Positions 1-29,700 of a stretch of 35,103 bases of DNA are shown in pieces. How positions within the stretch are numbered: the stretch's first letter is position 1; every line of letters begins with the position of its first letter. The DNA is from Anaerolineales bacterium. GTDB lineage: Bacteria; Chloroflexota; Anaerolineae; Anaerolineales; DRMV01. The translations under genes were made by a program, and so were the position numbers. The notes beneath the pieces were generated by a model. It saw only the letters and a program-made list of their open reading frames with translations. It was not told the DNA's origin and searched no databases. The stretch spans positions 1-35,103 of the forward strand of contig JALSPT010000163.1 in assembly GCA_026985785.1 (NCBI GenBank). Direction: 5' to 3'.

Positions 1-127
1 TGGAAAGCACGAAGTCGATGATGCGGTACTTGCCCGCGAAGGGCACGGCGGGCTTGGTGCGTTTGGAGGTGAGGACGCTCAGGCGAGAGCCTTCCCCACC
101 GGCAAGGATGACGGCGCGGGTTTTCAT
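1..127 (-). CDS. glgC: glucose-1-phosphate adenylyltransferase, N-terminal fragment (gene continues left of the window)
   Basis: The reverse complement reads [42 protein letters not shown], the classic GlgC N-terminus. AGGAGG (135-140, minus strand) lies 7 nt upstream of the ATG ending at 127. glgA is nearby. Confidence 0.85.
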
Positions 128-145
128 AGGGGAACCTCCTGAAAT

Positions 146-174
146 TTGACACCGACAGAGTCTTCCTGTACAAT
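146..174 (+). promoter_or_regulatory. sigma70-type promoter, TTGACA-17 nt-TACAAT
   Basis: TTGACA at 146-151, an exact 17-nt spacer at 152-168, and TACAAT at 169-174. This matches the consensus at 11 of 12 positions in otherwise GC-rich DNA. Confidence 0.5.
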
Positions 175-180
175 TAAGAA

Positions 181-297
181 CACCGGGGACGAAATTCGGC
201 TTCATGCCGTGTGATTGGCCGGTCGCGGCCGGCGCAATCCTATATCCCCGGAGGCTTCATCTCCCTTCTAAGGCCGCCAGCGTGAGCGGCCTTTTTT
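181..297 (+). ncRNA. candidate small RNA of about 115 nt, unclassified
   Basis: Bounded by the promoter at 146-174 and the intrinsic terminator at 271-297. It has an internal GGCCG-GTCG-CGGCC hairpin at 217-230. No plus-strand ORF with an RBS is present. Its 3' end is antisense to the last codons of the DUF3800 gene. Confidence 0.35.
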
Positions 298-1090
298 GGT
301 TGTAGTACGCGCCATAGGGGGCATGACGGGTGTCGTCGACGTCGTGTATCAAGCGGAAAGCAGGCCATAAGTAGCGGAGATAGCGCGCTTCTTTTCGCTC
401 GTAAAAGCGTTGCAACGCCCACAAGAAGTAGTCTGCTGCCTGTAAGCCTCCTGATGCTTCCGGCCTGCCGACGATTACCTGAATGGCGGCGTGGCTTTGA
501 ATGCCCCAGCGCCGGAAAAAACGCTCTCGTGCCTGAGCGAGTGCCTCTTGCAACGCCGCTGTGCGATCCGAGCGTCCCCGCTGTGCAAAACAGATGGTGT
601 ATCTTTGCTCTTTGTGAAGGCGATCACGAAACAAGCGGCGCACGAGATGGTCGTAGAGTTCGTTGGGATGGTACCGATAATCGGGGTCATGAGCATTGCG
701 CTGGCGGACATAGGCTAACACACGATGCTTGTCTTTCACTACGGCAAAAAAGCGCAATCCCTCTGTGTGTTTTAGCAAAGCAAAGACTTCGCGCCGCACT
801 TCCGGCAGGTCGTCTTTGGCGTGAAAGGCTATCGCCGTTTTCCCCGCGGTGGGTTGCATGGAGGGCACGCCCTGAAAATACGGGTCGGCCAGGAGACGCA
901 GTCGTAGTGCTTCCATGCGTGCATGAAGTTTGGCAGGATTGGGAACGTCCAACAAGCCCAGGATGAAATAGCGGGAACAGCCCGGCGTTCCCACGCGCAC
1001 TTCACCGCGGCGGCCAAACAACACGCCGTCACCGGCTTCGTCCACGAAGTAATATCGCTGGGATGGGGACGGTGCGGGATTGCATGTCAT
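257..1090 (-). CDS. DUF3800 family protein
   Basis: 277-aa ORF with N-terminal YYFVDEAGD and C-terminal GLQAADYFLWAL, which match my recollection of the DUF3800 hallmark motifs. By spot count its GC is lower than that of the flanking glg genes. Confidence 0.65.
   Translation of the reverse strand: MTCNPAPSPSQRYYFVDEAGDGVLFGRRGEVRVGTPGCSRYFILGLLDVPNPAKLHARMEALRLRLLADPYFQGVPSMQPTAGKTAIAFHAKDDLPEVRREVFALLKHTEGLRFFAVVKDKHRVLAYVRQRNAHDPDYRYHPNELYDHLVRRLFRDRLHKEQRYTICFAQRGRSDRTAALQEALAQARERFFRRWGIQSHAAIQVIVGRPEASGGLQAADYFLWALQRFYERKEARYLRYLWPAFRLIHDVDDTRHAPYGAYYNQKRPLTLAALEGR
271..297 (+). terminator. rho-independent terminator (plus-strand polarity)
   Basis: Stem AGGCCGC (271-277) pairs with GCGGCCT (286-292) around an 8-nt loop and runs into a T6 tract at 292-297. 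On the minus strand no U-tract follows the hairpin. Confidence 0.6.
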
Positions 1091-1135
1091 GCGATTCCCT
1101 GCAGGGGAAGGGGTGGCGAGGGGGGGGAGGAAGAG

Positions 1136-1159
1136 GTTAGGGAGTTAGGGAGTTAGGCG
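1136..1159. repeat. 8-bp tandem repeat, GTTAGGGA x2 plus GTTAGGCG
   Basis: Read directly: gttaggga gttaggga gttaggcg. The glgA stop codon (tta at 1145-1147, minus strand) lies inside the repeat. Confidence 0.6.
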
Positions 1160-2581
1160 GCGGTAGAGGTCGGCGTAGGCGCGGGCGGGTTGCCGCCACG
1201 AGAAATCCTGCGCCATGCCGCGGCGTTGGAGGGCTTGCCAGCGGCGGCGGTTGGGAAACAGGGCCAACGCCCGACGGAGGGCAAAGGCTAAGGCTTTGGG
1301 GGTGGCTTCGGGGAAGAGTACGCCAGTGCTGTGGCGGGGGTGCAGGTCGAGGTCGCGCACGGTGTCGGCCAGGCCGCCGGTTTCCGTCGCCACGGGCACG
1401 CAGCCGTAGCGCATGGCGATCATCTGCGCCAGGCCGCACGGCTCGTAGCGGGAAGGCATCATGAGCACGTCGGCGCCGGCGTAGATGCGGCGGGCGAGGG
1501 CGTCGTCATAGCGCAGCACGGCGCGCACCCGGTCGGGGAAGTCGGCTTCCAGCCGCCGCAGGGCGTTTTCCAGATGCGGCTCGCCAGTGCCCAGGAGCAC
1601 CGCCTGCCAGGGGAAATCGGCCAGCAGGCGCAGCGCCTCGGCCACCACGTCCACGCCCTTTTGCTCGGTCAGGCGGCTGACCAGGCCGAGAAGGGGCAGC
1701 CGCTCCTCCGGCTGCGGCAGCCCGACCTGCTGCCGCAGGGCCGCCGCATTGCGTTCCCGCAGCGTGAGGGTCGTGGCCGTATAGCGCACATCCAGCGCGG
1801 GGTCGGTGGCCGGGTTCCACAGGTCGGTGTCCAGGCCGTTGAGGATGCCGTGCAGGCGTTCCCGACGGCGGCGGAGGAAGTCTTCCAGGCCGTGACCGAA
1901 TTCGGGCGTCAGGATTTCGCGGGCGTAGGTGGGGGAAACCGTGGTGATGGCGTCCGCCGCGGCCAGCCCCAGCGGCAGGGGCACGCTGCGCGCCCAGGTG
2001 GGAAGGCCGCTGGCCTCGTTGGCAGGCGGCAGGCCGAAGGCATCCAGCAACAAGGGGGAAGCCGGCCCCATGTAAGGCAGGTTGTGCACGGTGAGCACAC
2101 TGCGGGTGGGTGCAAAGAAAGCGCCCTCGCGGCGGTAGTGGCCGAGGGCGTGGACTGCCAGGGCGGTGTGCCAGTCGTGGGCATGGAGGATGTCGGGCGG
2201 CCAATCCAGGTAGCGGGTCAGCGCGAGGGCGGCCAGGGAGAAAAAGGCGTATTTGACGGCGTCGGCGTGGGGGTCGGTGCTGTACACGCCGTGGATGGCC
2301 GCCACCGGCGCGCCGCCGATGAAGTAAACCGGGAGGCCGCGATGGGTGGTGGCGTACACTTCGGCGGTGATGGGACCGTTGCGGTGGGCTACGGTGAAGG
2401 CGGCCAGCGGGCGCAGCCCCCAGCGGGCAGCATCTACCGTCAGATGTAACGGCAGCACCAGACGGATGTCGGCGTCGGGCAGGTTTTCTTTGAGCGCCCA
2501 CGGCAGCGCGCCCGCGACGTCGCCCAATCCCCCTACTTTGGCAAATGGTGTGGCTTCGGCAGCAAGAAAAAGGATGTTCAT
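1145..2581 (-). CDS. glgA: glycogen synthase (ADP-glucose type)
   Basis: 478 aa. The N-terminus is MNILFLAAEATPFAKVGGLGDV (the KVGGL motif), and the C-terminal part has GT1 motifs (SRYEPCGL, GGLADTV). Confidence 0.95.
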   Translation of the reverse strand: MNILFLAAEATPFAKVGGLGDVAGALPWALKENLPDADIRLVLPLHLTVDAARWGLRPLAAFTVAHRNGPITAEVYATTHRGLPVYFIGGAPVAAIHGVYSTDPHADAVKYAFFSLAALALTRYLDWPPDILHAHDWHTALAVHALGHYRREGAFFAPTRSVLTVHNLPYMGPASPLLLDAFGLPPANEASGLPTWARSVPLPLGLAAADAITTVSPTYAREILTPEFGHGLEDFLRRRRERLHGILNGLDTDLWNPATDPALDVRYTATTLTLRERNAAALRQQVGLPQPEERLPLLGLVSRLTEQKGVDVVAEALRLLADFPWQAVLLGTGEPHLENALRRLEADFPDRVRAVLRYDDALARRIYAGADVLMMPSRYEPCGLAQMIAMRYGCVPVATETGGLADTVRDLDLHPRHSTGVLFPEATPKALAFALRRALALFPNRRRWQALQRRGMAQDFSWRQPARAYADLYRRLTP

Positions 2582-2630
2582 GAGGGCCTCTGCGAGAATT
2601 ATAGCATGCTGCCAGCCGTGGCGTCTGCTG

Positions 2631-3527
2631 CTATTTCCCCAAAAACAGCCCTGCAGCCAGCAGAACCCCGAAAATCAACACCAACTGACCGGTTTGCGCC
2701 AGCGCGACGTTGAGCGCCCGCCCTTCGGCCTGCATCACGATGCGGCGCGTCCGCCAGGCCCACGGCAGCGAGAGCACCACGGCCAACGCCTGGGGTGGAA
2801 AGATGCCCATGCCCACCGCCGCGGCTACGATGAGATAGGCGCCCCAGATGCACAGGTCGTATTCCCGACGCGCCCCGTTCGCCCCCAGCAGCACGGCCAA
2901 GGTGCGTTTGCCCGCCTGTTGGTCGGTGGGGATGTCGCGCAGGTTGTTGACTACCAGAATGGCCACCGAGAGCAGCCCCAAGGGCACCGCCGTCCACCAT
3001 ACCGCCGGGGTGACCGTGCGCGCTTGCACGAAATAGGTGCCGCCGACCGCGGCCAAGCCAAAGTAGAGGAAGACGAACAAATCGCCCAGGCCATAGTAGC
3101 CGTAAGGCAGGGGGCCGCCGGTGTAGCCGATGGCCGCCAGGATGGCCGTCAGGCCGATGAGCGCCACCGGCCAGCCTGCCACGGCAATCAGATACACGCC
3201 CACGGCAGCCGCGAGACCAAAGGTGAGCCACATGCCACGCGTCACCTCGGCAGGCGAGAGCAATCCGGCCTGGGTGACGCGGGTGGGCCCCAGGCGCTCG
3301 CCGGTATCGGCGCCGCGGTGGAAATCGGCGACGTCGTTGGCCAAATTGGCGCCGATTTGCAGCAAGACGCCGCCTGCCAGGGCGGCCAGCGCCGGGCCCC
3401 AGCGGAAAACACCATCGTGGGCAGCCAGCCCCCATCCGGCCAGCACCGGCCCCACCGCGGCGGGCAGGGTCTTGGGGCGGATGGCCAGCAGCCAGATTTT
3501 CCAGCGGGGAAGAGAGGTCGTGGTCAT
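2631..3527 (-). CDS. menA: 1,4-dihydroxy-2-naphthoate polyprenyltransferase (UbiA family)
   Basis: 298 aa and polytopic. It has the UbiA motifs NDVADFHRGADT and NNLRDIPTDQQAGKRTLAV. It sits in the men operon with a 4-nt ATGA overlap with menE. Confidence 0.9.
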   Translation of the reverse strand: MTTTSLPRWKIWLLAIRPKTLPAAVGPVLAGWGLAAHDGVFRWGPALAALAGGVLLQIGANLANDVADFHRGADTGERLGPTRVTQAGLLSPAEVTRGMWLTFGLAAAVGVYLIAVAGWPVALIGLTAILAAIGYTGGPLPYGYYGLGDLFVFLYFGLAAVGGTYFVQARTVTPAVWWTAVPLGLLSVAILVVNNLRDIPTDQQAGKRTLAVLLGANGARREYDLCIWGAYLIVAAAVGMGIFPPQALAVVLSLPWAWRTRRIVMQAEGRALNVALAQTGQLVLIFGVLLAAGLFLGK

Positions 3528-5092
3528 TGGGCATCCTCCGAAGTTGTGGTCTCCGGCGTCGGCGGCGAGGTGAAAAGGGCGCGGACGCCAGGGCGGCGCA
3601 CCTTGCCGGAGGCGGTGCGGGGCAGGTCGGACACCAGACGCCAGCGGCGCGGCACTTTATACCCCGCCAGGTGCCGGCGGCAGTGGGCGGCCAGCGTTTC
3701 GGGGGTGACGTGGGCGCCGGGGCGCAACACCACGGCCGCGGCTACCCGCTGGCCCCATTCGGGGTCCTCGAGGCCCACCACGCAGGCTTCGGCCACGGCG
3801 GGATGCTCCCGCAGCACGGCCTCCACCTCGGCGGGATAAACGTTTTCGCCGCCGGTGACGATCAGATCACCGCGGCGGTTGACCACCCACAAGTCGCCTT
3901 CGGCATCCAGGTAGCCCAGATCGCCGGTGCGCAGCCAGCCATCCCGCAACGCGGCCTGGGTGGCCTGGGGATCGCCGTCGTAACCTGCGAACACGGTGGG
4001 ACCGCTGACCAGAATTTCGCCGATTTCCCTCGCGGGCAACGGGTTGCCGTGGGTGTCTGCAATGCGGATGCGGGTGGCGAAGAGAGGTTTGCCCACCGTG
4101 CCGGGCTTGCGGCGGACTTCTTCGGGGCGCGCCGTGGCGGTTTGGGAAGTGGATTCCGTGAGGCCGTAGGTGGTGGCGATGGGATAGCCGCGGGCGAGGG
4201 CGCGTTGCAGCAGTTCGGGCGCTGCCGCCGCGCCGCCGAGCAGCACCAGCCGTAAGGTCGGTGGCGAGGGAGCGGGCACGGCTTCCAGCAGGCGGTGCAG
4301 CATGGTGGGCACGAGGGAAACCAGGGTGACGCGCTGTTGGACGAGGGTTTCGTATAGCCGAGGAGGGTTGAAAGAGGCGTTGGCGTTTTCGGGGAGCACC
4401 ACCGCGGTGCCGTAGAGGGCGCTGCGCCAGACGATGCTGAGCCCGCCGACATGATAGAGCGGCAAGGTGAGCAGCCAGCGGTCCTCGGGCAGCACGCCCA
4501 GACGAAAGGCCGAGGCCACCGCGCTGTGGTAGAAGTTGGCGGCGGTGAGCACGGCGGCTTTGGGGCGCCCGGTGGTGCCGGAGGTGAAGAGAATGGCGAA
4601 TGGCGAATGGCGAGTGGCGAGGGGTGAGGGGCGAGTTGCGGGGTGCGAGGGGCGAGGGGCGAGTGGCGAGTGGCGAATGGCGAGGGGCGAGGGGCGGGGG
4701 GCTTCCGCAATTCCTAATTCTTCATTCGCTATTTCCATCACCCGCCGTTCGCCGGCGACTGCGCGAGCGCGCGCCGCGGTGCTGGGGGTGGCAAGCACAT
4801 GCGTAGCGCCGCTGCGGTTCAGTTGGTCGCGCATCTCGGCCGGGGCGAGGCGCAGGTTGAGGGGCACCAGCACGGCACCCAGGCGGGCCACGGCGTGGAT
4901 GGCCGCCACGGCCACCGGCTCCCTGGGGAGCAACGCGGCCACGCGGGCCTTCGGGGCGACGCCCTCTTGGGTCAGCACCGCCTCCAGGGCCGCGGCCCAG
5001 GCCGCGAGATCCCGGTACGTGAGGGTGTGGGGTCCCCAAATCAGGGCCGGGCGGTCGGGGGTGGCGAGGGCGCGAGGGGTGAGGAGGTCCAT
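3524..5092 (-). CDS. menE: o-succinylbenzoate-CoA ligase, carrying an in-frame insert of about 35 aa encoded by the heptamer repeat
   Basis: 522-aa adenylate-forming enzyme with LFTSGTTGRPK, TYGLTE, GDLGYLD and PRTASGKV. It lies between menB and menA. Confidence 0.85.
   Translation of the reverse strand: MDLLTPRALATPDRPALIWGPHTLTYRDLAAWAAALEAVLTQEGVAPKARVAALLPREPVAVAAIHAVARLGAVLVPLNLRLAPAEMRDQLNRSGATHVLATPSTAARARAVAGERRVMEIANEELGIAEAPRPSPLAIRHSPLAPRPSHPATRPSPLATRHSPFAILFTSGTTGRPKAAVLTAANFYHSAVASAFRLGVLPEDRWLLTLPLYHVGGLSIVWRSALYGTAVVLPENANASFNPPRLYETLVQQRVTLVSLVPTMLHRLLEAVPAPSPPTLRLVLLGGAAAAPELLQRALARGYPIATTYGLTESTSQTATARPEEVRRKPGTVGKPLFATRIRIADTHGNPLPAREIGEILVSGPTVFAGYDGDPQATQAALRDGWLRTGDLGYLDAEGDLWVVNRRGDLIVTGGENVYPAEVEAVLREHPAVAEACVVGLEDPEWGQRVAAAVVLRPGAHVTPETLAAHCRRHLAGYKVPRRWRLVSDLPRTASGKVRRPGVRALFTSPPTPETTTSEDAQ
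4591..4702. repeat. tandem heptanucleotide array, about 16 units of GARKGGC
   Basis: Read directly: gaatggc x3, gagtggc, gaggggt, gaggggc, gagttgc, ggggtgc, gaggggc x2, gagtggc x2, gaatggc, gaggggc x2, ggggggc. In menE it is translated with 21-nt (7-aa) periodicity: SPLAIRH SPLAPRP SHPATRP SPLATRH SPFAI. Confidence 0.9.
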
Positions 5093-5095
5093 AGG

Positions 5096-5118
5096 AGTTG
5101 CGAGGGGCGAGTGGCGAA

Positions 5119-5123
<5 letters not shown>
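5096..5123. repeat. second copy of the heptamer repeat (3-4 units)
   Basis: gagttgc gaggggc gagtggc gaattag. These units fill essentially the whole 26-nt menB-menE spacer (5093-5118). Confidence 0.7.
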
Positions 5124-5985
<862 letters not shown>

Positions 5986-6009
5986 GGGTTTTCCTCCGGT
6001 TGAGGGCGT

Positions 6010-7857
6010 TCACATCTCAGATGTCAGGGATTGCAGACGGCCAATCGCCTCGCGCCGGGCGGCTTCGTGGGCCTGGGCGTCGGTGGGGACCTCGATGAGA
6101 TGGGGAAATTCCTGTGCCAGAACGGCTTGCAGGGTGGGCGACAATGCTTGCGGCGCGACCCGCCGATAGCGCAGGCCGTACATCTCGGCGGCCGGGGCGA
6201 AGGTCAGACCATGGGGGGTGCGGAAAAGGGCCGTGTAAGGCGGTTCGTGCTGGGCGATGGGCAGCCGGGCGAAGATGCCGCCGCCGTCGTTGTTGAGCAC
6301 GACAATGTGGAAGTTTCGCAGGCCGAAGCGGGAGACCGCCAGCAAGCCGCCCAGGTCGTGGAGCAGGGAGAGGTCACCCAGCACAAGCACGGTGGGCCTG
6401 CTGCTGGCCGCGGCCACCCCGGCGGCCGTCGAGACCACGCCGTCAATGCCGCTCACGCCCCGGTTGGCGAAGACGCGCAGCGGTTTGGCCGTGGGCAAGG
6501 CGTATTCGTCCAGGTGGCGCACCGGCAGGCTGTTGCCCACGAAGAGGCGGGCCTCAGGCGGCAGGGCCTTCACCACGGCGGCCAGCAGCGGGCCTTCGGT
6601 GAGGGGCGCCTTGGCTAGCAGGCGGCGGGCACGCTGCTCGGCTTGGTGCCATGCGCCCAGCCATGCTTCGTTGGGGCGGGGGGGACGCCCTGCCAGGGCC
6701 TCCAAAAGGGCGCTCAGGGTGGCTTGCGGGTCGGCCACCAGCCAGTGGGTGAGGCGATAGCCGGGATCAGGCCAGGCGGGGAAAGGCGTGAGGACGACCA
6801 CCTCGGCGTTCGGCGGCAGCCGTTCCAGGTAGTCCAGCAGGGCGTTGCTGGTGGGCGGGGCGCCCAGGCGCAACACAAACCGCGGCGGGTCGGTAGCCGG
6901 CAGCCCGGCGGCGAGGAAGTGAGGGTAGGTGGCGAGGATCTCTCCCCACCCCCGCCCGCCTGCGGCGGGCACCCCCTCCCCTCCCTTATCAAGGGAGGGG
7001 AGGGGGTTGGAGGGAGGGGAGAGATCCACGAACCGCACGCCGGAGAGGGCATCGGCCAACAGGGGGTAGCCCGCGACGGCGGCCAGTTGGCCCAGCAAGG
7101 CGGCGGTTTCACCGTCGGGAGCGGCCTGAGGCCCGGCCACGATGAGCCCCCAACGGTAAGCACGGATTTTCCGCGCCAGGGCCTCTACCTCGGCGGCAGG
7201 CGGCACCCTGGGGGCCACGGTAAGGCGCGTGAGCGGGGCCCCGTCGTGGCGGCCCGAGGCGCCCAGCGGCGCGCGGGCGGCCAGGGCGGCCAGGTCCTGG
7301 GCGTCGTCGGGCTGGGGCTCCAGGGGCTTGCGGAAGGGGAAGTTGAGGTGTACCGGGCCGGGCTTGCCGTGCAGCCCCAGGGCCGCAGCCACAGCCCGAT
7401 CGGCTACGGCCCGCAGGTAACGCAGGGTGCGTGGGGCAGGGGCGTCTTCCGGCAAGGGCAGGTCCACAAACCAGCGTACCGCGCTGCCGTAGAGTTTCAC
7501 CTGGTCGGCGGTCTGGTTGGCACCGCTATCGCGCAGTTCGTGGGGGCGGTCAGCGGTGAGCAGCAACAGGGGCACGCCGGCGCGGTCGGCTTCCAATACG
7601 GCCGGGTGCAGGTTGGCTGTGGCTGTGCCCGAGGTGGTCAACACCGCCGCGGGGCGCCCGCTTTCCAGGGCCAGCCCCAGGGCGAAAAAGGCCGCGCTGC
7701 GCTCGTCCAGGTGCACATAGACAGGCAACCGCTCCTGGCGGCTGAAGGCCACGGCCAGGGGCGTGCTGCGCGAACCGGGGCAGAGCACCACGCCGCTCAG
7801 CGGCAGGCGGGTGAGTTCGTCAACGAACAGCGTGGCGAAAAGGGTGGCGGGGTTCAT
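6010..7857 (-). CDS. menD: SEPHCHC synthase (ThDP-dependent), carrying an in-frame 30-aa insert from a palindromic element
   Basis: 615 aa with N-terminal FVDELTRLPLSGVVLCPGSRSTPL and the ThDP motif GDLSLLHD...NNDGGGIF. It has a 4-nt overlap with menF. Confidence 0.9.
   Translation of the reverse strand: MNPATLFATLFVDELTRLPLSGVVLCPGSRSTPLAVAFSRQERLPVYVHLDERSAAFFALGLALESGRPAAVLTTSGTATANLHPAVLEADRAGVPLLLLTADRPHELRDSGANQTADQVKLYGSAVRWFVDLPLPEDAPAPRTLRYLRAVADRAVAAALGLHGKPGPVHLNFPFRKPLEPQPDDAQDLAALAARAPLGASGRHDGAPLTRLTVAPRVPPAAEVEALARKIRAYRWGLIVAGPQAAPDGETAALLGQLAAVAGYPLLADALSGVRFVDLSPPSNPLPSLDKGGEGVPAAGGRGWGEILATYPHFLAAGLPATDPPRFVLRLGAPPTSNALLDYLERLPPNAEVVVLTPFPAWPDPGYRLTHWLVADPQATLSALLEALAGRPPRPNEAWLGAWHQAEQRARRLLAKAPLTEGPLLAAVVKALPPEARLFVGNSLPVRHLDEYALPTAKPLRVFANRGVSGIDGVVSTAAGVAAASSRPTVLVLGDLSLLHDLGGLLAVSRFGLRNFHIVVLNNDGGGIFARLPIAQHEPPYTALFRTPHGLTFAPAAEMYGLRYRRVAPQALSPTLQAVLAQEFPHLIEVPTDAQAHEAARREAIGRLQSLTSEM
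6937..7026. mobile_element. 90-bp GATC-bounded palindromic element inserted in frame in menD
   Basis: GATCTCTCCCCACCCCC...GGGGAGAGATC termini, with two internal hairpins (GCCCGCC-TGC-GGCGGGC and CCCCTCCCCTCCCTT-atc-AAGGGAGGGGAGGGG). Its termini and central hairpin are shared with the cores of the elements at 14784-14983 and 17196-17396. Confidence 0.8.
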
Positions 7858-9098
7858 GCGGTGTGTTCCGGTGTCAGGTGCGGGGTTCCCGGTGCGAGGT
7901 GAGACGGCTGACGGCCCACCGTTAACCGTTCCGCCTCAGCCAGCGCTTCGCCCATGGTGGTCATCTTGAGTGCCGTTTCATCCCACTCGCGGGCAGGGTC
8001 GGAGCCGGCCACGATACCCGCCCCGGCGAAAACCACGGCCTGGTCGCCCAGCAACAGAGCCGACCGAATGGCTACAGCCAGTTCGCCGGTGCCATCCGGG
8101 AAAGCGATGCCCACGGGAGCGGCATACCAGCCGCGGGGGTGCGGTTCGTGGCGGGCGATGAAGCGCAGGGCAGCCTCGCGCGGCACGCCGCCCAGGGCCG
8201 GGGTGGGATGCAGCGCGGCGGCCACGTCCAGCAGGCCGACCGCGGGGCGCAATTCTCCCCAAATCGGTGTTTCCAGATGCTGCAATCCCGGCAGGCGGCG
8301 CAGCCGCGGCATGGCGGGGATTTCCAGGCGCTCGGCAAGCGGCGTCAGCGCCTCTCGGATGGCTTCGACCACCCAGGCGTGCTCCCGACGGTCTTTCTCG
8401 CTGTGCAGCAGGGCTTTGCCCAGAGCGGTGTCTTCCTCGGGCGAGCCGCCGCGCCGCGCCGTGCCTGCCAGCGCGGCAGTCTCCACCTGACCCGTCGGCG
8501 TCACTCGGGCCAGGCGCTCCGGCGTTGCGCCGACGAAGGCCACGCCGGGCTGCGGCTCGAACAGGAAACAAAATGCCGTCGGGTGGCGACGATGAAGCGC
8601 CTCCAGCACGGTAACGGGATCGAGCGGCGCCTCGAAGCGCAACACCTCGGCCCGCGCCAGCACCACTTTGTGGAACTCGCCTGCTGCGATGGCTGCCAGT
8701 GCCTGTGAGACGGTGTGCTCCCACTGGAGGCGAGAAGGGCTGGCGAGCAGGGGGGGGAGGGACGGTGTGCCCAAAAGGGTGACTGTTGGCAGAGATGGCA
8801 GTGGCAGCGCGAGCGGGCCGTGCACTTCCTCCGGCAGGGCGGCCAATGCTGCGGGGAAATTTTCCCACCAGGGGCGAGGGTGGTGGTCTTTGGCGGTAAA
8901 GCCAAATCCCACGAAGAATGGCCCGGCTGTGCCCTGCCGTGCGGCGAGGTCGCGGGCCGCCCAGCGGAGCCGTTGGAAGCGATCTTCTCCTTCGGCGACG
9001 GCAGCGGTTCGCAGCCCCAACCCCACCCAGGCCGTGCGCTCGCGCAGCCAGGCAAAACGCGGTCTGCCGTGGGCGCGGCGAAGCAGGTCAAAGGGCAT
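7854..9098 (-). CDS. menF: isochorismate synthase
   Basis: 414-aa chorismate-binding family protein (ATPERL, LHPTPALGG, GWYAAPVG, AGAGIVAGSDP). It is the first biosynthetic gene of the men operon. Confidence 0.85.
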   Translation of the reverse strand: MPFDLLRRAHGRPRFAWLRERTAWVGLGLRTAAVAEGEDRFQRLRWAARDLAARQGTAGPFFVGFGFTAKDHHPRPWWENFPAALAALPEEVHGPLALPLPSLPTVTLLGTPSLPPLLASPSRLQWEHTVSQALAAIAAGEFHKVVLARAEVLRFEAPLDPVTVLEALHRRHPTAFCFLFEPQPGVAFVGATPERLARVTPTGQVETAALAGTARRGGSPEEDTALGKALLHSEKDRREHAWVVEAIREALTPLAERLEIPAMPRLRRLPGLQHLETPIWGELRPAVGLLDVAAALHPTPALGGVPREAALRFIARHEPHPRGWYAAPVGIAFPDGTGELAVAIRSALLLGDQAVVFAGAGIVAGSDPAREWDETALKMTTMGEALAEAERLTVGRQPSHLAPGTPHLTPEHTA

Positions 9099-9842: not shown

Positions 9843-9953
9843 CGTGAATTGCGTAAAAATGCCCCTGGTGGTATGCTTATGGATGGGTAGCAGCCGGTTG
9901 CTGCTGTGCGTCGGAGGCCGAAATCCTTGAACGTGACTTTGGAGGCGACAAAG

Positions 9954-10670
9954 ATGACTGCCCGCATGAAACGCAAAGCCGGTGTGGCCCTTTTGGTGCT
10001 CAGCGTGGTGTTGAGCGTGGTGTTGGCCGGTATGATGGTGTGGGCCAATACCGAGGCGGTGTATTATGGTTTTCCCCACATGACCAACAACCATTTGACG
10101 GCTTTGCATTGCCCCCATTTCATGGTTTGGGACGAGGTTGCCACGGTCAGCGCCAAAATCAAAAACACCACCGATCACCCGGCAACGGTCGGCGTCAAGT
10201 CGTGGGTCAGCGTGCCGCTGGCGTGGGAATTGGAGACGACATACCACAAGTTGCAGCCGGGGGAGCGTTGGATTTGGGTCCGGCAAGTAGGCCCCGAAAA
10301 TCGCGAACTACGCCATTTTGTCTTTGTGAGCGTGTACGTCTTTGGTGGGTATCCCATGCCGGAGCGGCAGAGTATGTGCGGGATATATGTGCTGCCGCTG
10401 AAGGGTATGCGGGGCGAGGTGGTGATGTGGGTTGCCATCGTGCTGGTGCTGGCGTTGCTGGTGGGGGGACTGGCACTTTGGCGGCGTGGTGAGGGCGCGG
10501 CCCGCAGCGGGATCGTAGCCACTCGCATCATACATTTCTTTGCGGTGATGGTGCCGCTTACACTGGGTGTTGCTTTGTGGATGAACTGGACGTTGGGTGT
10601 GGTGGTGCTGGTGGTGGATGTGTTGATGGTAGTAATTGTCGGCTTGAGTTTTGTGATGCACATGGAATAG
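9954..10670 (+). CDS. hypothetical membrane protein (N-terminal anchor, soluble domain, C-terminal TM helices)
   Basis: I moved the ORF-track entry 9906-10670 to the ATG at 9954, which is preceded by GGAGG at 9941-9945. Hydrophobic segments include VALLVLSVVLSVVLAGMMVW and VVMWVAIVLVLALLVGGLALW. I recognised no family. Confidence 0.55.
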   Translation: MTARMKRKAGVALLVLSVVLSVVLAGMMVWANTEAVYYGFPHMTNNHLTALHCPHFMVWDEVATVSAKIKNTTDHPATVGVKSWVSVPLAWELETTYHKLQPGERWIWVRQVGPENRELRHFVFVSVYVFGGYPMPERQSMCGIYVLPLKGMRGEVVMWVAIVLVLALLVGGLALWRRGEGAARSGIVATRIIHFFAVMVPLTLGVALWMNWTLGVVVLVVDVLMVVIVGLSFVMHME

Positions 10671-11188: not shown

Positions 11189-11718
11189 CCCTGGCCGGAG
11201 AGCACGTCTTGCAGGTTGGGGGTATCGGGGTGCTCGCGTCGCTCGGCGCGCAGGCGGCGCGCTTCTTCCAGGCGCTGGCGCCGCAACTTGTGGATGCCGA
11301 AAACGAGCACGACCAGTAGCAGGCCCAGCACCACCAACTCGGCCATGAAAAGGGTAAAACGCGTTTCGTGTTGCTCGAGGAAACGGTTGCTTTCGGCGGT
11401 AATGATGATGATCCGCCGCACTACCGAGATCAATCCAACCACCAGGAACGGTTCGCTGAACATGCGCCGCTGGGTGAGGGAGATCTTGACCATTTGCAGG
11501 ATTTCACCCAGCATGGAGACGACCAATAACTGGTCGAGAATGCTCAAAGGGTCGAAAGCGGCGTGGGTTGGATGGAGCAGCCAGGGCGCGAAGTATTGCC
11601 ACCAAATTTGCACCAGAGCCCCCATGGCTGCCAGGAGAAGGGTAAACCCAATGCCAACATAGACGAGGGCCTCGGCGCGCGACCAGAGGCGAAGCATTTT
11701 TTGCATGGTGTTTTCCAT
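11185..11718 (-). CDS. small integral membrane protein, possibly PsiE-like
   Basis: 177 aa with four hydrophobic helices and a charged C-terminal tail. It has an ATGA overlap with the NUDIX gene. The family assignment is tentative. Confidence 0.5.
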   Translation of the reverse strand: MENTMQKMLRLWSRAEALVYVGIGFTLLLAAMGALVQIWWQYFAPWLLHPTHAAFDPLSILDQLLVVSMLGEILQMVKISLTQRRMFSEPFLVVGLISVVRRIIIITAESNRFLEQHETRFTLFMAELVVLGLLLVVLVFGIHKLRRQRLEEARRLRAERREHPDTPNLQDVLSGQG

Positions 11719-22839: not shown

Positions 22840-23733
22840 ATGGGCAAGGCTCGCATCTTGGTCGTGGAAGACGATCTGGACATCGCCAATATGTTACAGA
22901 TCTATTTTTCCAGTCAGGGGTACGATGTGGAAATTGCCCCTCGCGGTTACGACGCGTTGGAAAAAACCCGTCACAGTATGCCCCACCTCATTGTGCTGGA
23001 CATCATGCTCCCTGACATCGATGGGTATGAAGTCTGCCGCCGTTTGCGCACCAGCACCCGCACCAGCCACATCCCTGTGATCTTCCTGACGCAGAAAGAC
23101 GAGCGCAGTGACCGCCTGCAGGGGTTGGAATTAGGCGCGGATGATTACATCACCAAGCCGTTCGATATCGAAGAATTGCGGTTGCGGGTGCAAAATGCCA
23201 TTCGGCGGGCGGAGCGTGAGAGCCTGACCGACCCCCGCTCCGGCCTGCCGGCGGGGCGGCTGATCGAGGAGCAACTGCGGCGCATCATACGCACCGACGG
23301 CTGGGCGTTGATGGATATTCGCATCAACCATTACGATGCCTTTCGGGAAGTGTATGGCTTTGTGGCCGCCAACGATGTATTGCGTTTTACCGCCATGTTG
23401 CTCAATGAAGTGGTGGACGAATTGGGCGGGGCCGAGGATTTCATCGGCCATCCGGGAGACGAGAACTTTGTCGTCATTACCACCGAGGAGGCTGCAGCGC
23501 CTATTCGCGCCCGCCTCAAAGAGCGGTTTGCCGAAGAGGTCAAGAGCCACTACAACTTCATCGACCGCGAGCAAGGTTACATTACAGTAGAGGAACAAGG
23601 CAAACAACGGCGGGTGCCTTTGATGACGCTTTCCATCGGCATTGTATCGCCTTCGCAATATCAGTTCGCGGATATTCGCGAGATCACCGAACTGGCAGCG
23701 GAAGCGCGGCGTAAAGATCTGCCGGCTGCTTGA
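22840..23733 (+). CDS. response regulator, REC plus a degenerate GGDEF domain
   Basis: REC motifs VVEDD, VLDIMLPDIDG and ITKPF. The output domain has the GGDEF layout (TDPRSGLPAGR...DIRINHYDAFREVYGF...), but GDENF replaces GGDEF and there is no RxxD I-site. Confidence 0.85.
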   Translation: MGKARILVVEDDLDIANMLQIYFSSQGYDVEIAPRGYDALEKTRHSMPHLIVLDIMLPDIDGYEVCRRLRTSTRTSHIPVIFLTQKDERSDRLQGLELGADDYITKPFDIEELRLRVQNAIRRAERESLTDPRSGLPAGRLIEEQLRRIIRTDGWALMDIRINHYDAFREVYGFVAANDVLRFTAMLLNEVVDELGGAEDFIGHPGDENFVVITTEEAAAPIRARLKERFAEEVKSHYNFIDREQGYITVEEQGKQRRVPLMTLSIGIVSPSQYQFADIREITELAAEARRKDLPAA

Positions 23734-26700
23734 GCACCCTCGCGAGGTCACGAGAGCCCATGCTGGGAACCGAAGTCGTTGCAGTAGGGATTGTGTTGGC
23801 GGTCGTTGGGGCCGGTTTTCTGTTGATGGCCCGAACGCTGGCCGCGCTTGCCAGCATGGGAGGTGGAAAAGAAGCCGCCCTTGCCTTGCCAGCCCAGCCG
23901 CTGCAGGCGCCGGAAGAGGAAAGCGCGGGGGTCATCGTTGTGGCTTCGGGCGGCAGGGTAGTGTACCTCAACCGTGTGGTACGGGAGTGGCTCGATTTGC
24001 TCCCGGAGGATCGGCCTTCTTTGGAGTTCCTGCTACACCGTGTACGCCCCGACGACGAGTTCATGCGATTGTGCAGCCAGCCGGGGGAAGCGCGTCTCAA
24101 TTTGGCCGCCCGGGCGCTGGAAGCCCTCTCGTATGCTGTGCCTTACAAGGGGGAATTGGCAATGGCGATTGTATTGCGCCCGTTGTCTGTGAGCGCCACA
24201 GGGGAGGAAGGGGGGGGCAATTCCCCCGTCGCCGAGATGGTGCGCCGTTTCGTGGTGTTGGGGCAGAAAATTGCCACCCATTTGGATTTCGAAGAAGCCC
24301 TGTTGGCCGTGGCAGAGATGCTGGCGGAGATTTTGCCTTTTGATGTCATGGAAATCACCCTCTGGGACAAGCGCCACGAGCGTCTGGTGCCGTATCGCTA
24401 CGCGATAGAAGAGGGAAAAGTGCTGCGTCATCCGGCGACAGAACGCTATGCTCCCGAAGAGAGTCTGAGTGGTTATGTATTGCGGCAACGGCAACCAGTT
24501 TTGGTTGCGGATTTGGATCATGAAGCGCCGGTGACCGCTGCTATCAATCGCCGCCGCTACCCCATTCGCGCTTACCTGGGCGTCCCGTTGGTGGTAAACG
24601 AAAAGCCCATTGGCACATTGGAAATCGCTTCTTTTACCCCGGGGGCTTATACCGTTGCGGACCAGAACTTCTTTGCTTTGGCGGCAGTCGATATCGCCGT
24701 GGCGGTATATAACGCTCGCCGTTTCAGCGAGACCTCTCGGCAATTGCAGGAACTGCGCAACCTGGCAGAGATGGCGCGGGCAGTGGGAGGCGTCAAAGAG
24801 GCGCGTCAACTTGTGGCGCATATTATGCGCAATATCAGCGCTTTGCTCTCGGCCCAGGTTATGGGATTTCTTTTCTACGACGAAGTACACCATGTGTTGC
24901 AGGCGCAGTGGCCTTTCAAGGGGCTGCCTGAGGGCTTTGTAGAGGCTTATCGAACCCGCATACCGTCGGGAGGGCGCGCGGAGGCTTTGTTGTTGCAGGG
25001 TGAGCCGTTGGTAACGGATGATGCGGTCACCGATGAGCGGTGGCAGGTTTTGGGGCTGGCCGAACTGAGCAAAGTAGCGGGTATTCACCACAGTGTGTTG
25101 TACCCTCTCAACACGGGTCAGCGTTCGTTGGGTTTTCTGCAGGTCGCCAACAAACCGGAAGATGCACCTTTCGATACGGATGACCTGGAAGTGTTGCGTT
25201 TGATTGTGGGGCAGGTGGTGCCCTTGTTGGAAAACGCGGTTTTGTTCGAAGAGGCCCGGCAGCGCGCCCAGCGCGCTGAGGCGCTGCGGCGCATTGCCAG
25301 CCTGGCGGCCTCTGAGGCTACCTTGGAGGAACTGTTCAAGTTCTCGCTGGTGGAGATGGCGCGTTTGGTGGGCGCCCGCTATGGGGCGGTACTGCTGTGG
25401 GAAGAAGAAGGTCTTGTGCCTCATGAGACTTCGGTGTATGGTCTTTCACCGGAGCAGGCGCGCGCCGTTGGTGTCATCCGTGCCGACGCTCCCGATTTCC
25501 TCCTTACCGTCAGCCGCACAGGGCGGCCTTTCTTAAGCCGAGATGTGCAGAATGACCGCCGTGTGGCACGAGCCTACCGTCCGATTTTGAAGACTTTACC
25601 TGATGTGCGGGCGGCGCTGGTTGTGCCCATGCAGGCGCATGGTGAAAAGGTGGGGGAAATTTTGTTGGGGAGCGACCGCCCGGGACAGTTTGACCGGAGC
25701 GACTTGCAATTGATAGCGGCAGCCGCGGCGCAGCTGGCAGTAGGGGTCGAGCGGCAGCGGTTGTTGGCGCAGAGCGACGAAACGTTGCGCTCGCAAGTGC
25801 GGGAGTTGAGCACCCTGACCCGCCTCAGTCGCGAACTGGCCGCTGTGTCTTCCCTTGAAGAACTGCTGCGCTACGCTCATCGCCAGGTTGTCGAGCTCAC
25901 CGCTGCTGACTGTGGGCATACGCTGGTGCTGGAGGCAAGCGAGGAGGGAAAATGGCACGTGTTGCACCAGGCGGGTGGCCCCTGCAGAGCACGCTTGCAT
26001 CCGTTGGATGAGCACGCCCTTGCGCAGGGTGTGCCTGTGGACGTGAGCGATTACCGTACCTCTTCGTACACGGCGCCCCACGAAGGTGTGCGTTCGTCAT
26101 TGGTGTTGCCCTTGTTGTACCAAAACGAAATAGTGGGCGTGTTGCACTTGCATGCCCACCAGCCCAATCATTTCGATTACACCCGCCGCCGCTTTGCGCA
26201 CATGTTGGCGCAACACATCGCGGTAGCCATTGGCCACGCCCGCGAAATGCGACGCCTTTTTGACCACAATAGGGCGTTGCAGCACAAAGCGCGAGGCCTG
26301 CAGCGCTTACAGGATTTTTTGCAAACCCTACACCCCCTGGCCGAAGAAGATGAGATTTTTGAACGCTTTGTGGCCCTGATAAGCGATACGGCGGGTTTTG
26401 ATGCGGTGCTTTTGGCGCGCTACGATGTGGCCAGCGGCAGGTTGAACCCTGTCGCTGTGAGGGGGTTCACCGAAGTCGCTCCGCTGCCATGGGATGCATT
26501 GAACCTTTTGCTGGAAGACCGCTTTGGGCAGGGAGAGGTGTATTTCATCCCGGCAGAAGAACGGCCACCGCTACCGGCGAACTTGCATTTACCTGCGGCG
26601 AACACCAGTTTGCCTGCGGATGTTGACGAAACGACCTGGCGCCCCGAAGACCTTTTGCTGGTGGCATTGCGCATGCCTGAGGGGGAGTTGCTGGGTGTAG

Positions 26701-29700
26701 TGTATCTGGATGCGCCGCGGGAGGGACGCCGCCCCGACGAGGCGACGTTGGAGGTGTTGCGTTTGCTGGGCGCAGAAGGCGCCTGGCTGTTGGAAGTGCG
26801 CCATTTGTTGGAAGGATGGGGGGCAGAACGGCGCTACTTGGAAGATCGTGTCCGCGAGGCTGAAGAGGTCACCCGTCAGGTTCAGCGTGACTTGCCGCGC
26901 TGGCTGCGCAAGGACCTGCAACAGGCCATTGACCGCTACACGTTGGCGCAGCGGGCGGAGCGTTTGCGGGTGAGCCTGGAGGTGACCACGGTGCTCAATC
27001 GCCAGCCCAGCCGTAGCGGAGTGCTCAATGCGTTGGGTAGGCAACTTGTAGAGCGGTTGGGCTTCAATTACGTGCTCATCGCTGAACCAACGCCTTTCCG
27101 GGGCGATGGTGAAGAGGGTGGTGTGCGGCTGTTTCGTGTGTTTGGGGAATTGCCACCCGGTTCCCGCTTGGATATGTTGCTGGGGCAACGTAATCCTTTG
27201 ACCGAGGTGTTGCGAGAGGGGAAAGTGCTCATTGTGCCTGATATCGGTCGCGACCGCTCATGGGAACGCTCTCCCCTCCTCCAACGGCTGCAAGCCCAAA
27301 GTTTTGTGGCGTTCCCCATCGTCGTTGAGCAACAGGGTGAAGGGGGGCGCCCGCGAGGCGCGGTGCACCATCTGGTGTTGGCCACTTCCAGCGCCCCAAT
27401 GGCTTCCTCCTCCCATGCAGATGCCCTGGTCTTCGAACTGCTTGGGCGGCAGGTGGGCATTGTTTTGCAAAACCTGGAATTGCTGGCGAATACCTCTCGC
27501 CGCCTACGGGTAGCCGATTTATTGCTTTCGTTCAGCAGCCAGTTGGGCGTGTTGGATCCCGGAAGAATTCTCAATACTCTGCTGGAGAGCGCCTTGGGCG
27601 TGCTGCAGCAACACGCCCATGCCGGCTTTGTGGCTTTGTGGGACCCTGAGCAGGAGATGCTCCGTTTGCAGGCCGCGGGGGGCTATGCTGCGCCGGATGA
27701 AATGTTGAAAGTGGCGCTCTCTGCCGATAGTTTGCCCGCCCGGGTGATGTTCGAAGGGCAACCGCGCCGCATTGGCGAACTGGACTTTGCCGCGGCTTAT
27801 CCCCTGGATGCCGAAGGTCTGCTTGCTTATCAGAAGGCTACGGCAGAGCGCATTCCTGTTTCCACCATGATCGTGCCCTTGGGCAGTGGCAAACAAGCGT
27901 TGGGAGTGGTGGTGTTGGACAATTTCAACACCACGGCTGCTTTTACGCGCGAAGACCAGGATTTGATCGTTTCGCTGGCTCGACAAACAGCCCTGAGCCT
28001 GGAAAACGCCCGCCTTTTGCAGACGGCTGAGCGCCGAGCCGCGCAACTCCATGCCCTGGCGGCTGCATCGGCGGATATCGTTGCGCGTAGCCTTTCCCTG
28101 GAAGAAATCGAGTCGTCTCTGCTGGAGCAACTGGCGCAGGTGTTGCCTTACGATGGGGGCACGTTGTGGCTGCGCGAAGGTAAAAACTTGCGAGTGCGCG
28201 ACGCTCGCGGATTTCCCAATGCCGATGAACTGGTAGGCATTACCATCGCGATCGAGGATAGCCGTTTGTTCCAGGATATGTTGGCTGCCCGCCGGGCTTT
28301 GGTCGTTCACGATACCCATGCCGATAACCGGTTCCCTTCGCCGGAGGTGGTGCCCAATCGCTCCTGGCTTGGGGTACCGCTGCGTTTCAAGGACGAAGTG
28401 TTGGGCGTGATTGCGCTGGAAAAGAAAGAGCCGCACTTCTTCACGCGCGATTGGGTGGAAACGGCAGAAACGTTTGCCAGCCAGGCAGCGGCGGCCTTGG
28501 CCAATGCCCGTCTGTACGAAGAAAGCCTGCATCGTTCGGAAGAACTCGACCGGCGCAGTCGGCGGTTGGCTTTGGTTTACGAGGTGACAGCCGAACTTTC
28601 GTCCTCGCTTGACCCTCACTACATCGCTACTTATACTGCCCGGCGGCTGCACGAGGCGTTGGGAGCCGTGCCGGTCTCGCTGGTTTTGTGGCAAGAAGAG
28701 CAGCCCATCCTGGTGGCAGAAGCGCCGTCTGTATCGGAGACGGGGGGACTGCCGCGTGTTCTGCCTGCAGCGCCCTTGTTTGCCCATTTGAAGGAAACGC
28801 TGGGCATCTTTCGCACGGAGGACTATGCCGAAGAGCCGTTGATGGCGCCTTTGCTCGATTTCCTGGCCGCGCGGGAGGGGCATGAGGTGGTGGCCGTGCC
28901 CTTGACGGCGGGCGAAACTTTCTTTGGCGTGGTGTTTCTCCATGTGCCTGCAGGGCGCGATGTGGGTAGTGAGGAGATCGACCTGGCTCAAACGGTAGCA
29001 AAGCAGGCGGCGGTAGCGTTACAAAATGCCCATTTGTATGAAACCACGCGCCGTTTCAGCGAAGAACTGGAAGCGCGGGTCAATGCTCGAACCCGGGAAT
29101 TGCAGCGGGAGCATCATCGTGCTCAAACGCTGTTGCGCATTATGGGCGAACTTTCTGCCAGCCTGGATCTCGACCAGGTGCTCAACCGCACGCTTGACCT
29201 GCTCAACGAGGCTCTCAGCGCCGAGCAGAGCAGTATCTTGCTGGCGCGCTCCGGTGAAAGCACGCTGTTTTTCCGGGCAGGCCGGGGCTATACCGAGCAG
29301 CCGCCGGTGGGAGGACGCCCCACCGATATTTCGGCCAAAGATTCGCTGGCAGGCTGGGTCATCCAGAACAATCAGCCGGTTTTGATCGCCGATCTGAGGC
29401 AGGATCCCCGCTGGAGCGAAAAGCCGCACGGTTTACCCACGGCGCACCGTAGCGTGCTCGGCGTGCCGTTGGTGGTGGCGCAGGAAACGTTAGGCGCTTT
29501 GTTGCTCTTTCACCCGGAGCCTCATCATTTTACGGACTATCACCTTGACCTCGCCGAGGCGACGGCCAAGCAGGTGGCGGTCGCCATCAACAACGCCGAA
29601 CTCTTCCGCCTGATTCGGGAGCAGGCGGAGCGGTTGGGTAAATTGCTCCGCCAGCAGGAAGTCGAGGCCAGCCGGGCACGAGCGATCCTCGATGCTATTG

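Follow-up and report, generated by a model that had tools for sequence, protein, structure and literature searches.

Heptanucleotide repeats are the commonest long simple-sequence repeats (SSRs) in many bacterial genomes and are depleted from coding regions (PMC4692102, PMC4679880). Here an array of heptanucleotide units is described inside menE, the gene of an o-succinylbenzoate-CoA ligase homolog, on contig JALSPT010000163.1 of an Anaerolineales bacterium (Chloroflexota; assembly GCA_026985785.1); positions 1 to 35,103 of this contig were analysed and are called the window. GGGNATC repeats of Xanthomonas and Nostoc are located mostly between co-oriented open reading frames (ORFs), are sometimes arranged as inverted pairs and are capable of forming G-quadruplexes (G4) (PMC4692102). 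TAACTGA repeats of Beggiatoaceae and cyanobacteria are located mostly just upstream of start codons without a Shine-Dalgarno sequence, differ by 7-nt steps between strains and in occasional cases encode the peptide LSVISYQ (PMC4679880). In E. coli K1, a perfect (AAGACTC)n tract of 3–53 units forms part of the 5' end of neuO, an accessory phage-borne surface-modification gene. Of 64 complete genomes, 65.6% carried the gene out of frame; neighbouring unit numbers were seen in a single culture, and the activity of NeuO is stated to rise with repeat number (PMC13001214).

The menE array resembles the bacterial heptanucleotide SSRs in its tandem 7-nt units, in the differences in unit number between strains and in the presence of inverted pairs, and some of the published arrays are translated as well. 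The published SSRs occupy many loci per genome, mostly spacers by start or stop codons, and change in 7-nt steps. What sets the menE array apart is its length, its position in the middle of the gene of a conserved core enzyme and its inheritance at a single site throughout a clade; depletion of such repeats from coding regions is what the published surveys emphasise. The host is a member of the Chloroflexota, for which no link to heptamer repeats was found in the papers searched, and the unit is GARKKGC instead of the published CCCCAGT, GGGAATC or TAACTGA. The short tandemly repeated repetitive (STRR) sequences of cyanobacteria, which Mazel et al. are said to have described in 1990, reportedly have the units CCCCAGT, TTGGTCA and CAACAGT; the menE units GAATGGC, GAGTGGC and GAGGGGC differ from these. 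With neuO the locus shares a heptanucleotide array within the coding sequence, whose reading in three phases yields a 7-aa repeat and which gives a full-length protein only if the unit number is divisible by 3; unlike in neuO, the units are imperfect, the array occupies the middle of a core gene, and of 33 close sequences none is out of frame. The Rickettsia palindromic elements, attributed to Ogata et al. in 2000, are said to be discrete consensus elements of 100–150 bp that lie in frame within protein genes. Such elements, and those resembling miniature inverted-repeat transposable elements, are likewise palindromic repeat DNA that is translated in frame at fold-sparing positions and inherited by related species, but the menE element is made of variable arrays of 7-nt units, with growth apparently by slippage and not by transposition; shared ends, target duplications, terminal inverted repeats and a conserved full-length consensus were not seen across 12 alleles. 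Heptamer SSRs, in-frame heptanucleotide tracts and in-frame palindromic repeat DNA are thus all known as ingredients. Two things are undescribed in the papers searched: a clade-wide, two-armed heptamer array in the middle of a core enzyme gene beside the P-loop, and the translation of one unit family in core genes that are unrelated and belong to several phyla. We regard the locus as probably a heptanucleotide SSR element that a permissive MenE loop tolerates, its frame being kept by purifying selection.

The array at 4591–4702 consists on the + strand of exactly 16 head-to-tail heptamers (112 bp), within the minus-strand menE (units 1–8: GAATGGC ×3, GAGTGGC, GAGGGGT, GAGGGGC, GAGTTGC, GGGGTGC; units 9–16: GAGGGGC ×2, GAGTGGC ×2, GAATGGC, GAGGGGC ×2, GGGGGGC), and at most 3 identical units stand in succession. 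Tandem Repeats Finder (TRF) reported period 7, 14.7 copies, 85% matches and 0 indels for it, and found two arrays of the heptamer unit in the window, the other being in the menB–menE spacer. With up to one mismatch allowed, the two-unit pattern GARKGGCGARKGGC had 15 matches in the window (13 in the menE array and 2 at 5095–5115), where 0.53 were expected by shuffling and 15 were reached in 0 of 100 shuffles. The array therefore has what defines a heptanucleotide SSR, i.e. head-to-tail 7-nt units in at least 3 copies, beyond chance, and the first-pass annotation of about 16 GARKGGC units in menE was borne out by direct reading of the + strand, by TRF and by the shuffles. Units of the broader family (GARKKGC and its complement GCMMYTC) contain no stop codon, whichever strand and phase is read, and the array is for this reason simply translated.

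The peptide encoded by the array, PRPSPLAIRHSPLAPRPSHPATRPSPLATRHSPFAI (residues ~129–166), is a Pro/Ser/Ala/Arg-rich stretch with a period of 7 residues, and the translation across it reads ...MEIANEELGIAEAPRP SPLAIRH SPLAPRP SHPATRP SPLATRH SPFAI LFTSGTTGRPK, with EAPRP just before SPLAIRH; the first proposal, a 7-aa periodic insert read in three phases, matches this peptide. The array had also been said to end 2 codons before LFTSGTTGRPK, which had to be corrected: the Ala and Ile codons, together with the first base of the Leu codon, come from the last unit (coding strand GCCATTC), and the array therefore abuts the conserved strand AILFTSG directly. The assignment of the host gene to menE is supported by the presence of both PF00501 and PF13193, by the closest solved relative (Bacillus subtilis MenE, 5buq, E=2.7e-95), by the structural match given below and by the men neighbourhood. 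Where the solved B. subtilis chain has 39 residues the query has 62. In an AlphaFold2 model run on a 27-sequence alignment (mean predicted local distance difference test score (pLDDT) 82, predicted template modelling score 0.78), residues 129–163 had a pLDDT of ~30 and no secondary structure, with flanks above 89; this low-confidence loop lies between the confident strands 117–120 and 166–170, of which the latter leads into the P-loop. Chains of B. subtilis MenE (5x8f) were the best structural match of the model, with a target-normalised template modelling (TM) score of 0.83. The repeat is thus predicted to form a disordered loop at the surface of a MenE that is otherwise folded normally.

Directly upstream of the array, read on the coding strand, are reverse-complement-type units (GGAAATA GCGAATG AAGAATT AGGAATT GCGGAA; peptide EIANEELGIAE), and the locus is thus an inverted pair with a short left and a long right arm. 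For comparison, the DNA of 14 ortholog loci, representing 12 distinct alleles with 64–82% protein identity, was parsed in heptamer register between the anchors ATH(V/L)LAT and LFTSGTTG. In all 14 loci a left and a right arm were present at the identical site, with differing lengths and unit variants. Left arms were built from GAATTGC/GAATGAG/GAATTAG-type units (peptides IANEELG, ANEELRV and similar), right arms from GCAATTC/GCCATTC/GCAACTC/GCCCCTC-type units (SPFAIRN, SQFAIPN, SPLATRH and similar) terminating in SP(L/F)A(I/L)LFTSG. Other units can occupy the same site, namely GCACATS (AHGTSHI) in locus L171 and GCAAATC/CTAAATC (SQILNHK) in L172, and the peptide units of proteins P0010 and P0017 are AHGTSHI or SQILNHK. 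The homolog clusters derive from metagenome-assembled genomes of Anaerolineae or Chloroflexota. In sister groups without the array the sequence here terminates in TPFGILFTSG and is ~30 residues shorter; the scored stretch measures 37–40 residues in array-less orthologs vs 68 in the window MenE, and the last array period overlaps the native (S/T)PF(A/G)I strand. Since array-less orthologs and B. subtilis MenE are both shorter here, the insert is lineage-specific, as ortholog alignment had been expected to decide. The first-pass annotation had the array itself right, and had overlooked the inverted left arm and the presence of the element at this site throughout the clade.

As to its history, a heptanucleotide element would have entered, or arisen at, the permissive loop before the P-loop strand in the clade ancestor, and the 112-bp array would be the expanded, GC-enriched right arm of this old two-armed element; in the window lineage the right arm may have expanded and drifted to GC-rich units, consistent with a GC content of 70% in this region of the contig. 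Length changes are likely to have come about via slipped-strand mispairing or unequal recombination at the level of 7 nt (and of 21 to 30 nt), and frameshifting variants would be eliminated by selection because menE is presumably needed for menaquinone synthesis. The element probably has no required role in the enzyme and would be repeat DNA persisting where its harm is small. Alternatively, the insert might be an adaptive linker, a periodic Pro-rich loop for partner binding, localisation or length-tuned activity. This is compatible with its retention at one site clade-wide and with the reported rise of NeuO activity with repeat number (PMC13001214), but the peptide is not conserved (AHGTSHI or SQILNHK in P0010 and P0017), the stretch between the anchors varies from 46 to 79 residues in the clade, the loop is predicted to be disordered, and the sister clades and B. 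subtilis MenE do without it; we consider such a linker unlikely. An assembly or sequencing artefact of the metagenome contig is hardly credible. Short reads can mis-assemble tandem repeats; here, however, 112 nt of imperfect units are shorter than a typical read pair, the reading frame is intact, near-identical arrays (0–1 substitutions across menE) were recovered from separate samples, and the same architecture in independent assemblies of at least 12 orthologs makes an artefact improbable in itself.

For the analysis of strain variation a set of 33 distinct close MenE sequences (20 cluster representatives and 13 further members) was taken from the protein database. All 33 were full length (493–529 aa) with 0 truncated, and ~360-aa C-terminal fragments, as expected from frameshifted menE, were not among the top matches, although their score would have sufficed. 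Members of the P0002 cluster with a length of 49 aa were considered as frameshift fragments and proved unrelated. Within clusters of 90% identity every internal length difference of MenE falls in the repeat, the remaining differences being a 2-residue N-terminal start (P0127) and differing C-terminal tails (P0132). From P0133 to P0132 the gain is 7 residues, i.e. exactly three units (ACTCGCA ACTCCTA ACTCGCA; 21 nt); from P0002 to P0123 the right arm gains 24 nt; and in P0134 the left arm is shorter by one super-unit of 30 nt. The expected difference in unit number between sister strains was thus found, with indels of 21, 24 and 30 nt at >90% identity, all multiples of 3. The P0009 protein was present on at least 24 contigs, and its menE DNA differed by 0–1 substitutions across four assemblies, the single difference being in the repeat. 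A metagenome scan with MenE yielded a single close relative, L135, and did not bring up any variant of the window allele.

The locus had initially been proposed as a contingency locus, in which slippage by 1 or 2 units toggles menE and makes menaquinone synthesis phase-variable as in neuO. The proposal draws on the facts that 7 is not a multiple of 3, that unit number varies between close strains and that neuO proves the ability of in-frame heptanucleotide tracts to switch (PMC13001214). The menE tract is, however, imperfect (85% matches, at most 3 identical consecutive units) and located mid-gene (codons 129–166 of 522), away from the 5' end, in a core biosynthetic gene within an operon; all 33 close sequences are in frame vs 34% for neuO, every strain indel is a multiple of 3 nt, and the P0009 allele is stable across assemblies and contigs. 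Phase variation of menE is therefore, from the contrast with neuO on every point, rated as unsupported and a switch as unlikely, with a slimmer chance than the linker.

Folding of the two-armed element was compared with dinucleotide shuffles. Elements of 8 of 10 ortholog loci folded better than their shuffles (z −1.4 to −9.5), 6 of them clearly (z ≤ −2.5); the z values were −1.4 for L131 and L123, −2.5 for L125, −2.8 for L001, −4.0 for L002, −4.6 for L129, −5.6 for L132, −5.8 for L133 and −9.5 for L134, and the element of L124 folded no better than shuffles (z +1.15). Orthologs with longer left arms pair these with the right arm. The window element had no excess stability over shuffles, with z +0.07 as RNA, +0.96 as DNA and +0.5 in the ten-locus comparison script. 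Hairpin-capable inverted repeats are present in orthologs (z down to −9.5) and degenerate in the window (z about 0), where the right arm, enlarged to 16 GC-rich units, has become mismatched with the short, AT-richer left arm. A functional hairpin in the window genome was set aside after both RNA and DNA folding gave no excess stability.

In a matrix of duplex energies between left and right arms across lineages the diagonal was not favoured, length and GC content being dominant, and for this reason no co-variation or compensatory evolution of the arms is claimed. No canonical G4 (at least 4 tracts of G3+ with loops of 1–7 nt; criterion of Rehm et al. 2015) was present in the array; + strand positions 4621–4652 contain four G4 runs only if an 8-nt loop is allowed. 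A scan against Rfam gave no matching family, and promoter and terminator scans gave nothing relevant. It is conceivable that a nucleic-acid structure with a function, either an mRNA or ssDNA hairpin or a template-strand G-quadruplex, tunes transcription, mRNA stability or ribosome speed before the P-loop codons. The significant hairpins in 6 of the 10 ortholog loci tested, the G4 runs at 4621–4652 with the longer loop, and the formation of G4 in vitro by G-rich heptamer repeats of Xanthomonas and Nostoc (PMC4692102) would be in keeping with this. In the window, on the other hand, the element folds no better than shuffles and the array lacks a G4 with loops of up to 7 nt, the arm duplex energies show no lineage-specific co-variation, an Rfam family is missing, and the structure decays in some lineages while the gene stays, so that it is not essential; a structural function is improbable, to about the same degree as the linker.

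The SSR element in MenE is one of several occurrences of the unit family. The menB–menE spacer of the window (26 nt from the menB stop to the menE ATG; 5093–5118) is filled by units of the mini-array, which consists of 3 clean units (5095–5115) and a degenerate fourth (5116–5122) that contains the menB stop codon, and is followed by the ATG; 80% of the spacer 7-mers recur in the in-gene array, and no Shine-Dalgarno sequence is visible ahead of the menE ATG. In this the locus resembles the TAACTGA repeats of Beggiatoaceae, which likewise form a spacer array before a start codon with no visible Shine-Dalgarno sequence (PMC4679880). In nearly all ortholog loci that cover it, the menB–menE spacer is filled by short-unit arrays, with inverted pairs in L129 and L132, and further spacers of L123, L125, L131 and L132 carry heptamer arrays. 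The recurrence of the unit beside the menE start, as first noted, was confirmed, and the accompanying analogy of a dispersed family with the STRR sequences is apt because the units recur in the menB–menE spacer and in other intergenic spacers of relatives. Spacer and in-gene units are shared within L172 (0.67 vs at most 0.2 with other lineages); in L131, L123, L129 and L171 the two arrays have no lineage-specific units in common. The menB–menE spacers of L001, L129, L131, L132, L171 and L172 consist almost wholly of short-unit repeats, with lineage-specific units and no visible Shine-Dalgarno sequence. In L123, 8-nt units of CCCTAAC(C/T)T type (9922–10000) fill this spacer, and in L125, of the P0009 lineage, CCTGACA ×7 extends across the last codons of menE, its stop codon and the spacer to the next gene (11479–11528).

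A search for four GARKKGC units that took a single genome from each species yielded at least 120 stretches. The matches listed came from Chloroflexota, Planctomycetota, Bacteroidota, Cyanobacteria, Gammaproteobacteria and others; among them, 38 of 127 arrays lay within an open frame that extended at least 60 codons to either side (a figure that is an upper bound for GC-rich DNA) and 12 of 127 had an inverted partner within 200 nt. In-gene arrays were located just past the AMP-binding core of a non-ribosomal peptide synthetase (NRPS), inside the match to the anticodon-binding domain of a class I tRNA-synthetase (IleRS-type) gene, in a GH127 gene, in a Cas6-like protein and in a YfhO-like membrane protein (left arm RMANGEWRG, right arm AIRHSPFAI). 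A second loop of ANL enzymes, before TGDLGY or TGDLARW, also carries translated heptamer arrays: in the MenE homolog P0062 (591 aa) a second 7-aa periodic insert, QPSAVSRQRPAVGGQRSAVGG, precedes TGDLGY, and in the NRPS L052:3-3767 the peptide of the pre-motif loop array is EGRGAKGEGRRAKG. A repeat-peptide search of 5.8 billion proteins returned only domain-less ORFs of 56–99 aa; the window MenE was itself not listed, and the search is therefore unusable for counting in-gene arrays. The "hypothetical proteins" P0137–P0168 of Vibrio, Photobacterium, Chloroflexota, Phycisphaerae and others, retrieved by the repeat peptide, most likely result from spurious ORF calls over heptamer arrays between genes.

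Caldilineaceae-type MenE proteins (P0038, P0046, P0055, P0072, P0097 and relatives; 50–55% identity), known from protein sequence alone, appear to carry periodic palindromic peptides at the same site before the P-loop, for example GDWGLGTGDWGWAT ... SPEHPVTLSPCHLVTLSSPQSII. Their peptides are of the forms GDWGLGT... and ...HPVTLSP..., of which GDWGLGT is an exact translation of (GGGGACT)3, and the 8-aa period of the right arm suggests octamer units. In a neighbour-joining tree the Caldilineaceae-type clade was separated from the window clade by array-less lineages.

Several of these observations weigh against mere tolerance of the element. Its persistence at one site across orthologs of 64–82% identity could mean that it is useful, and the occurrence in Caldilineaceae-type MenE, judged from the proteins, is possibly independent and would point the same way. 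The unit variants shared between spacer and gene (window, L172) hint at an active homogenising process, for which slippage alone seems insufficient. Frameshifted alleles would, in addition, be under-sampled in a protein database, yet ~360-aa C-terminal ORFs should rank among the top matches. An active, lineage-specific process might generate or homogenise stop-free heptamer arrays in Chloroflexota and several other phyla, repeatedly seeding spacers before start codons and permissive loops of core enzymes, with the MenE site before the P-loop hit independently in at least 2 clades. The seeded loops would be those of MenE, MenD, the IleRS-type synthetase and the NRPS, often with inverted pairs of arrays, and the shared variants of the window and L172 would be a trace of the process. 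We regard such a process as doubtful, though a shade less so than the linker or a structural function.

If the tolerated-element interpretation is true, non-triplet SSRs are not always barred from core genes, and a stop-free unit family can persist for long in an essential enzyme beside its catalytic P-loop, with only selection policing the frame. Heptamer arrays would then inflate protein length, add "low-complexity" inserts to alignments and models and give rise to small ORFs that are spurious, and they could be used as fast strain markers for uncultured Chloroflexota. A new mechanism would be involved only if the arrays were actively generated or regulated menaquinone synthesis.

Positions of the menE element and of neighbouring features in the window.
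Feature	Position	Strand	Description
menA-like UbiA prenyltransferase gene	2631..3527	-	downstream neighbour; start overlaps menE stop
menE	3524..5092	-	522 aa, o-succinylbenzoate-CoA ligase homolog; frame intact across array
LFTSGTTGRPK codons	4558..4590	-	P-loop adenylation motif of ANL enzymes; adjoins array
Right-arm array	4591..4702	-	16 heptamers; coding strand GCMMYTC, + strand GARKGGC
Left arm	4703..4736	-	4–5 reverse-complement-type units; degenerate inverted pair with right arm
Mini-array	5095..5122	-	coding strand TTCGCCA CTCGCCC CTCGCAA CTCCT; menB–menE spacer
menB	5119..5985	-	ECH_1 family; upstream operon neighbour of menE
menD	6010..7857	-	thiamine pyrophosphate (TPP) enzyme

On the minus strand the genes for a TetR protein, a chorismate-binding enzyme, a TPP enzyme, an enzyme of the enoyl-CoA hydratase (ECH) family, menE and a UbiA prenyltransferase follow each other, and the row is, as assigned from the encoded proteins, a menF-menD-menB-menE-menA operon; the order of the men genes is the same in the ortholog locus L125. 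menD contains an in-frame nested palindrome of its own at 6933–7030 (minus strand), with a perfect inner inverted repeat of 17 nt (ACCCCCTCCCCTCCCTT gat AAGGGAGGGGAGGGGGT; 6971–7007) and an outer one of 19 nt with 89% identity (6933–6951 / 7012–7030); the encoded peptide is VDLSPPSNPLPSLDKGGEGVPAAGGRGWGEIL, and a palindromic peptide resembling it occupies the same site in the MenD ortholog of L125. The GC content of the men region is ~0.70 over most of 2–9 kb (0.58 in the first kb, 0.65–0.66 in two bins) and drops in a sharp step to ~0.53–0.63 (mostly 0.56–0.61) over 10000–32000, a part that includes the gene for a multi-GAF histidine kinase of 2347 aa (23730–30773); a horizontal origin or a chimeric contig is possible for this step between 1–9000 and 10000–32000. 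A further short repeat, GTTAGGGA ×2.8, is located at 1136–1157, at the 3' end of a glycogen-synthase-like gene.

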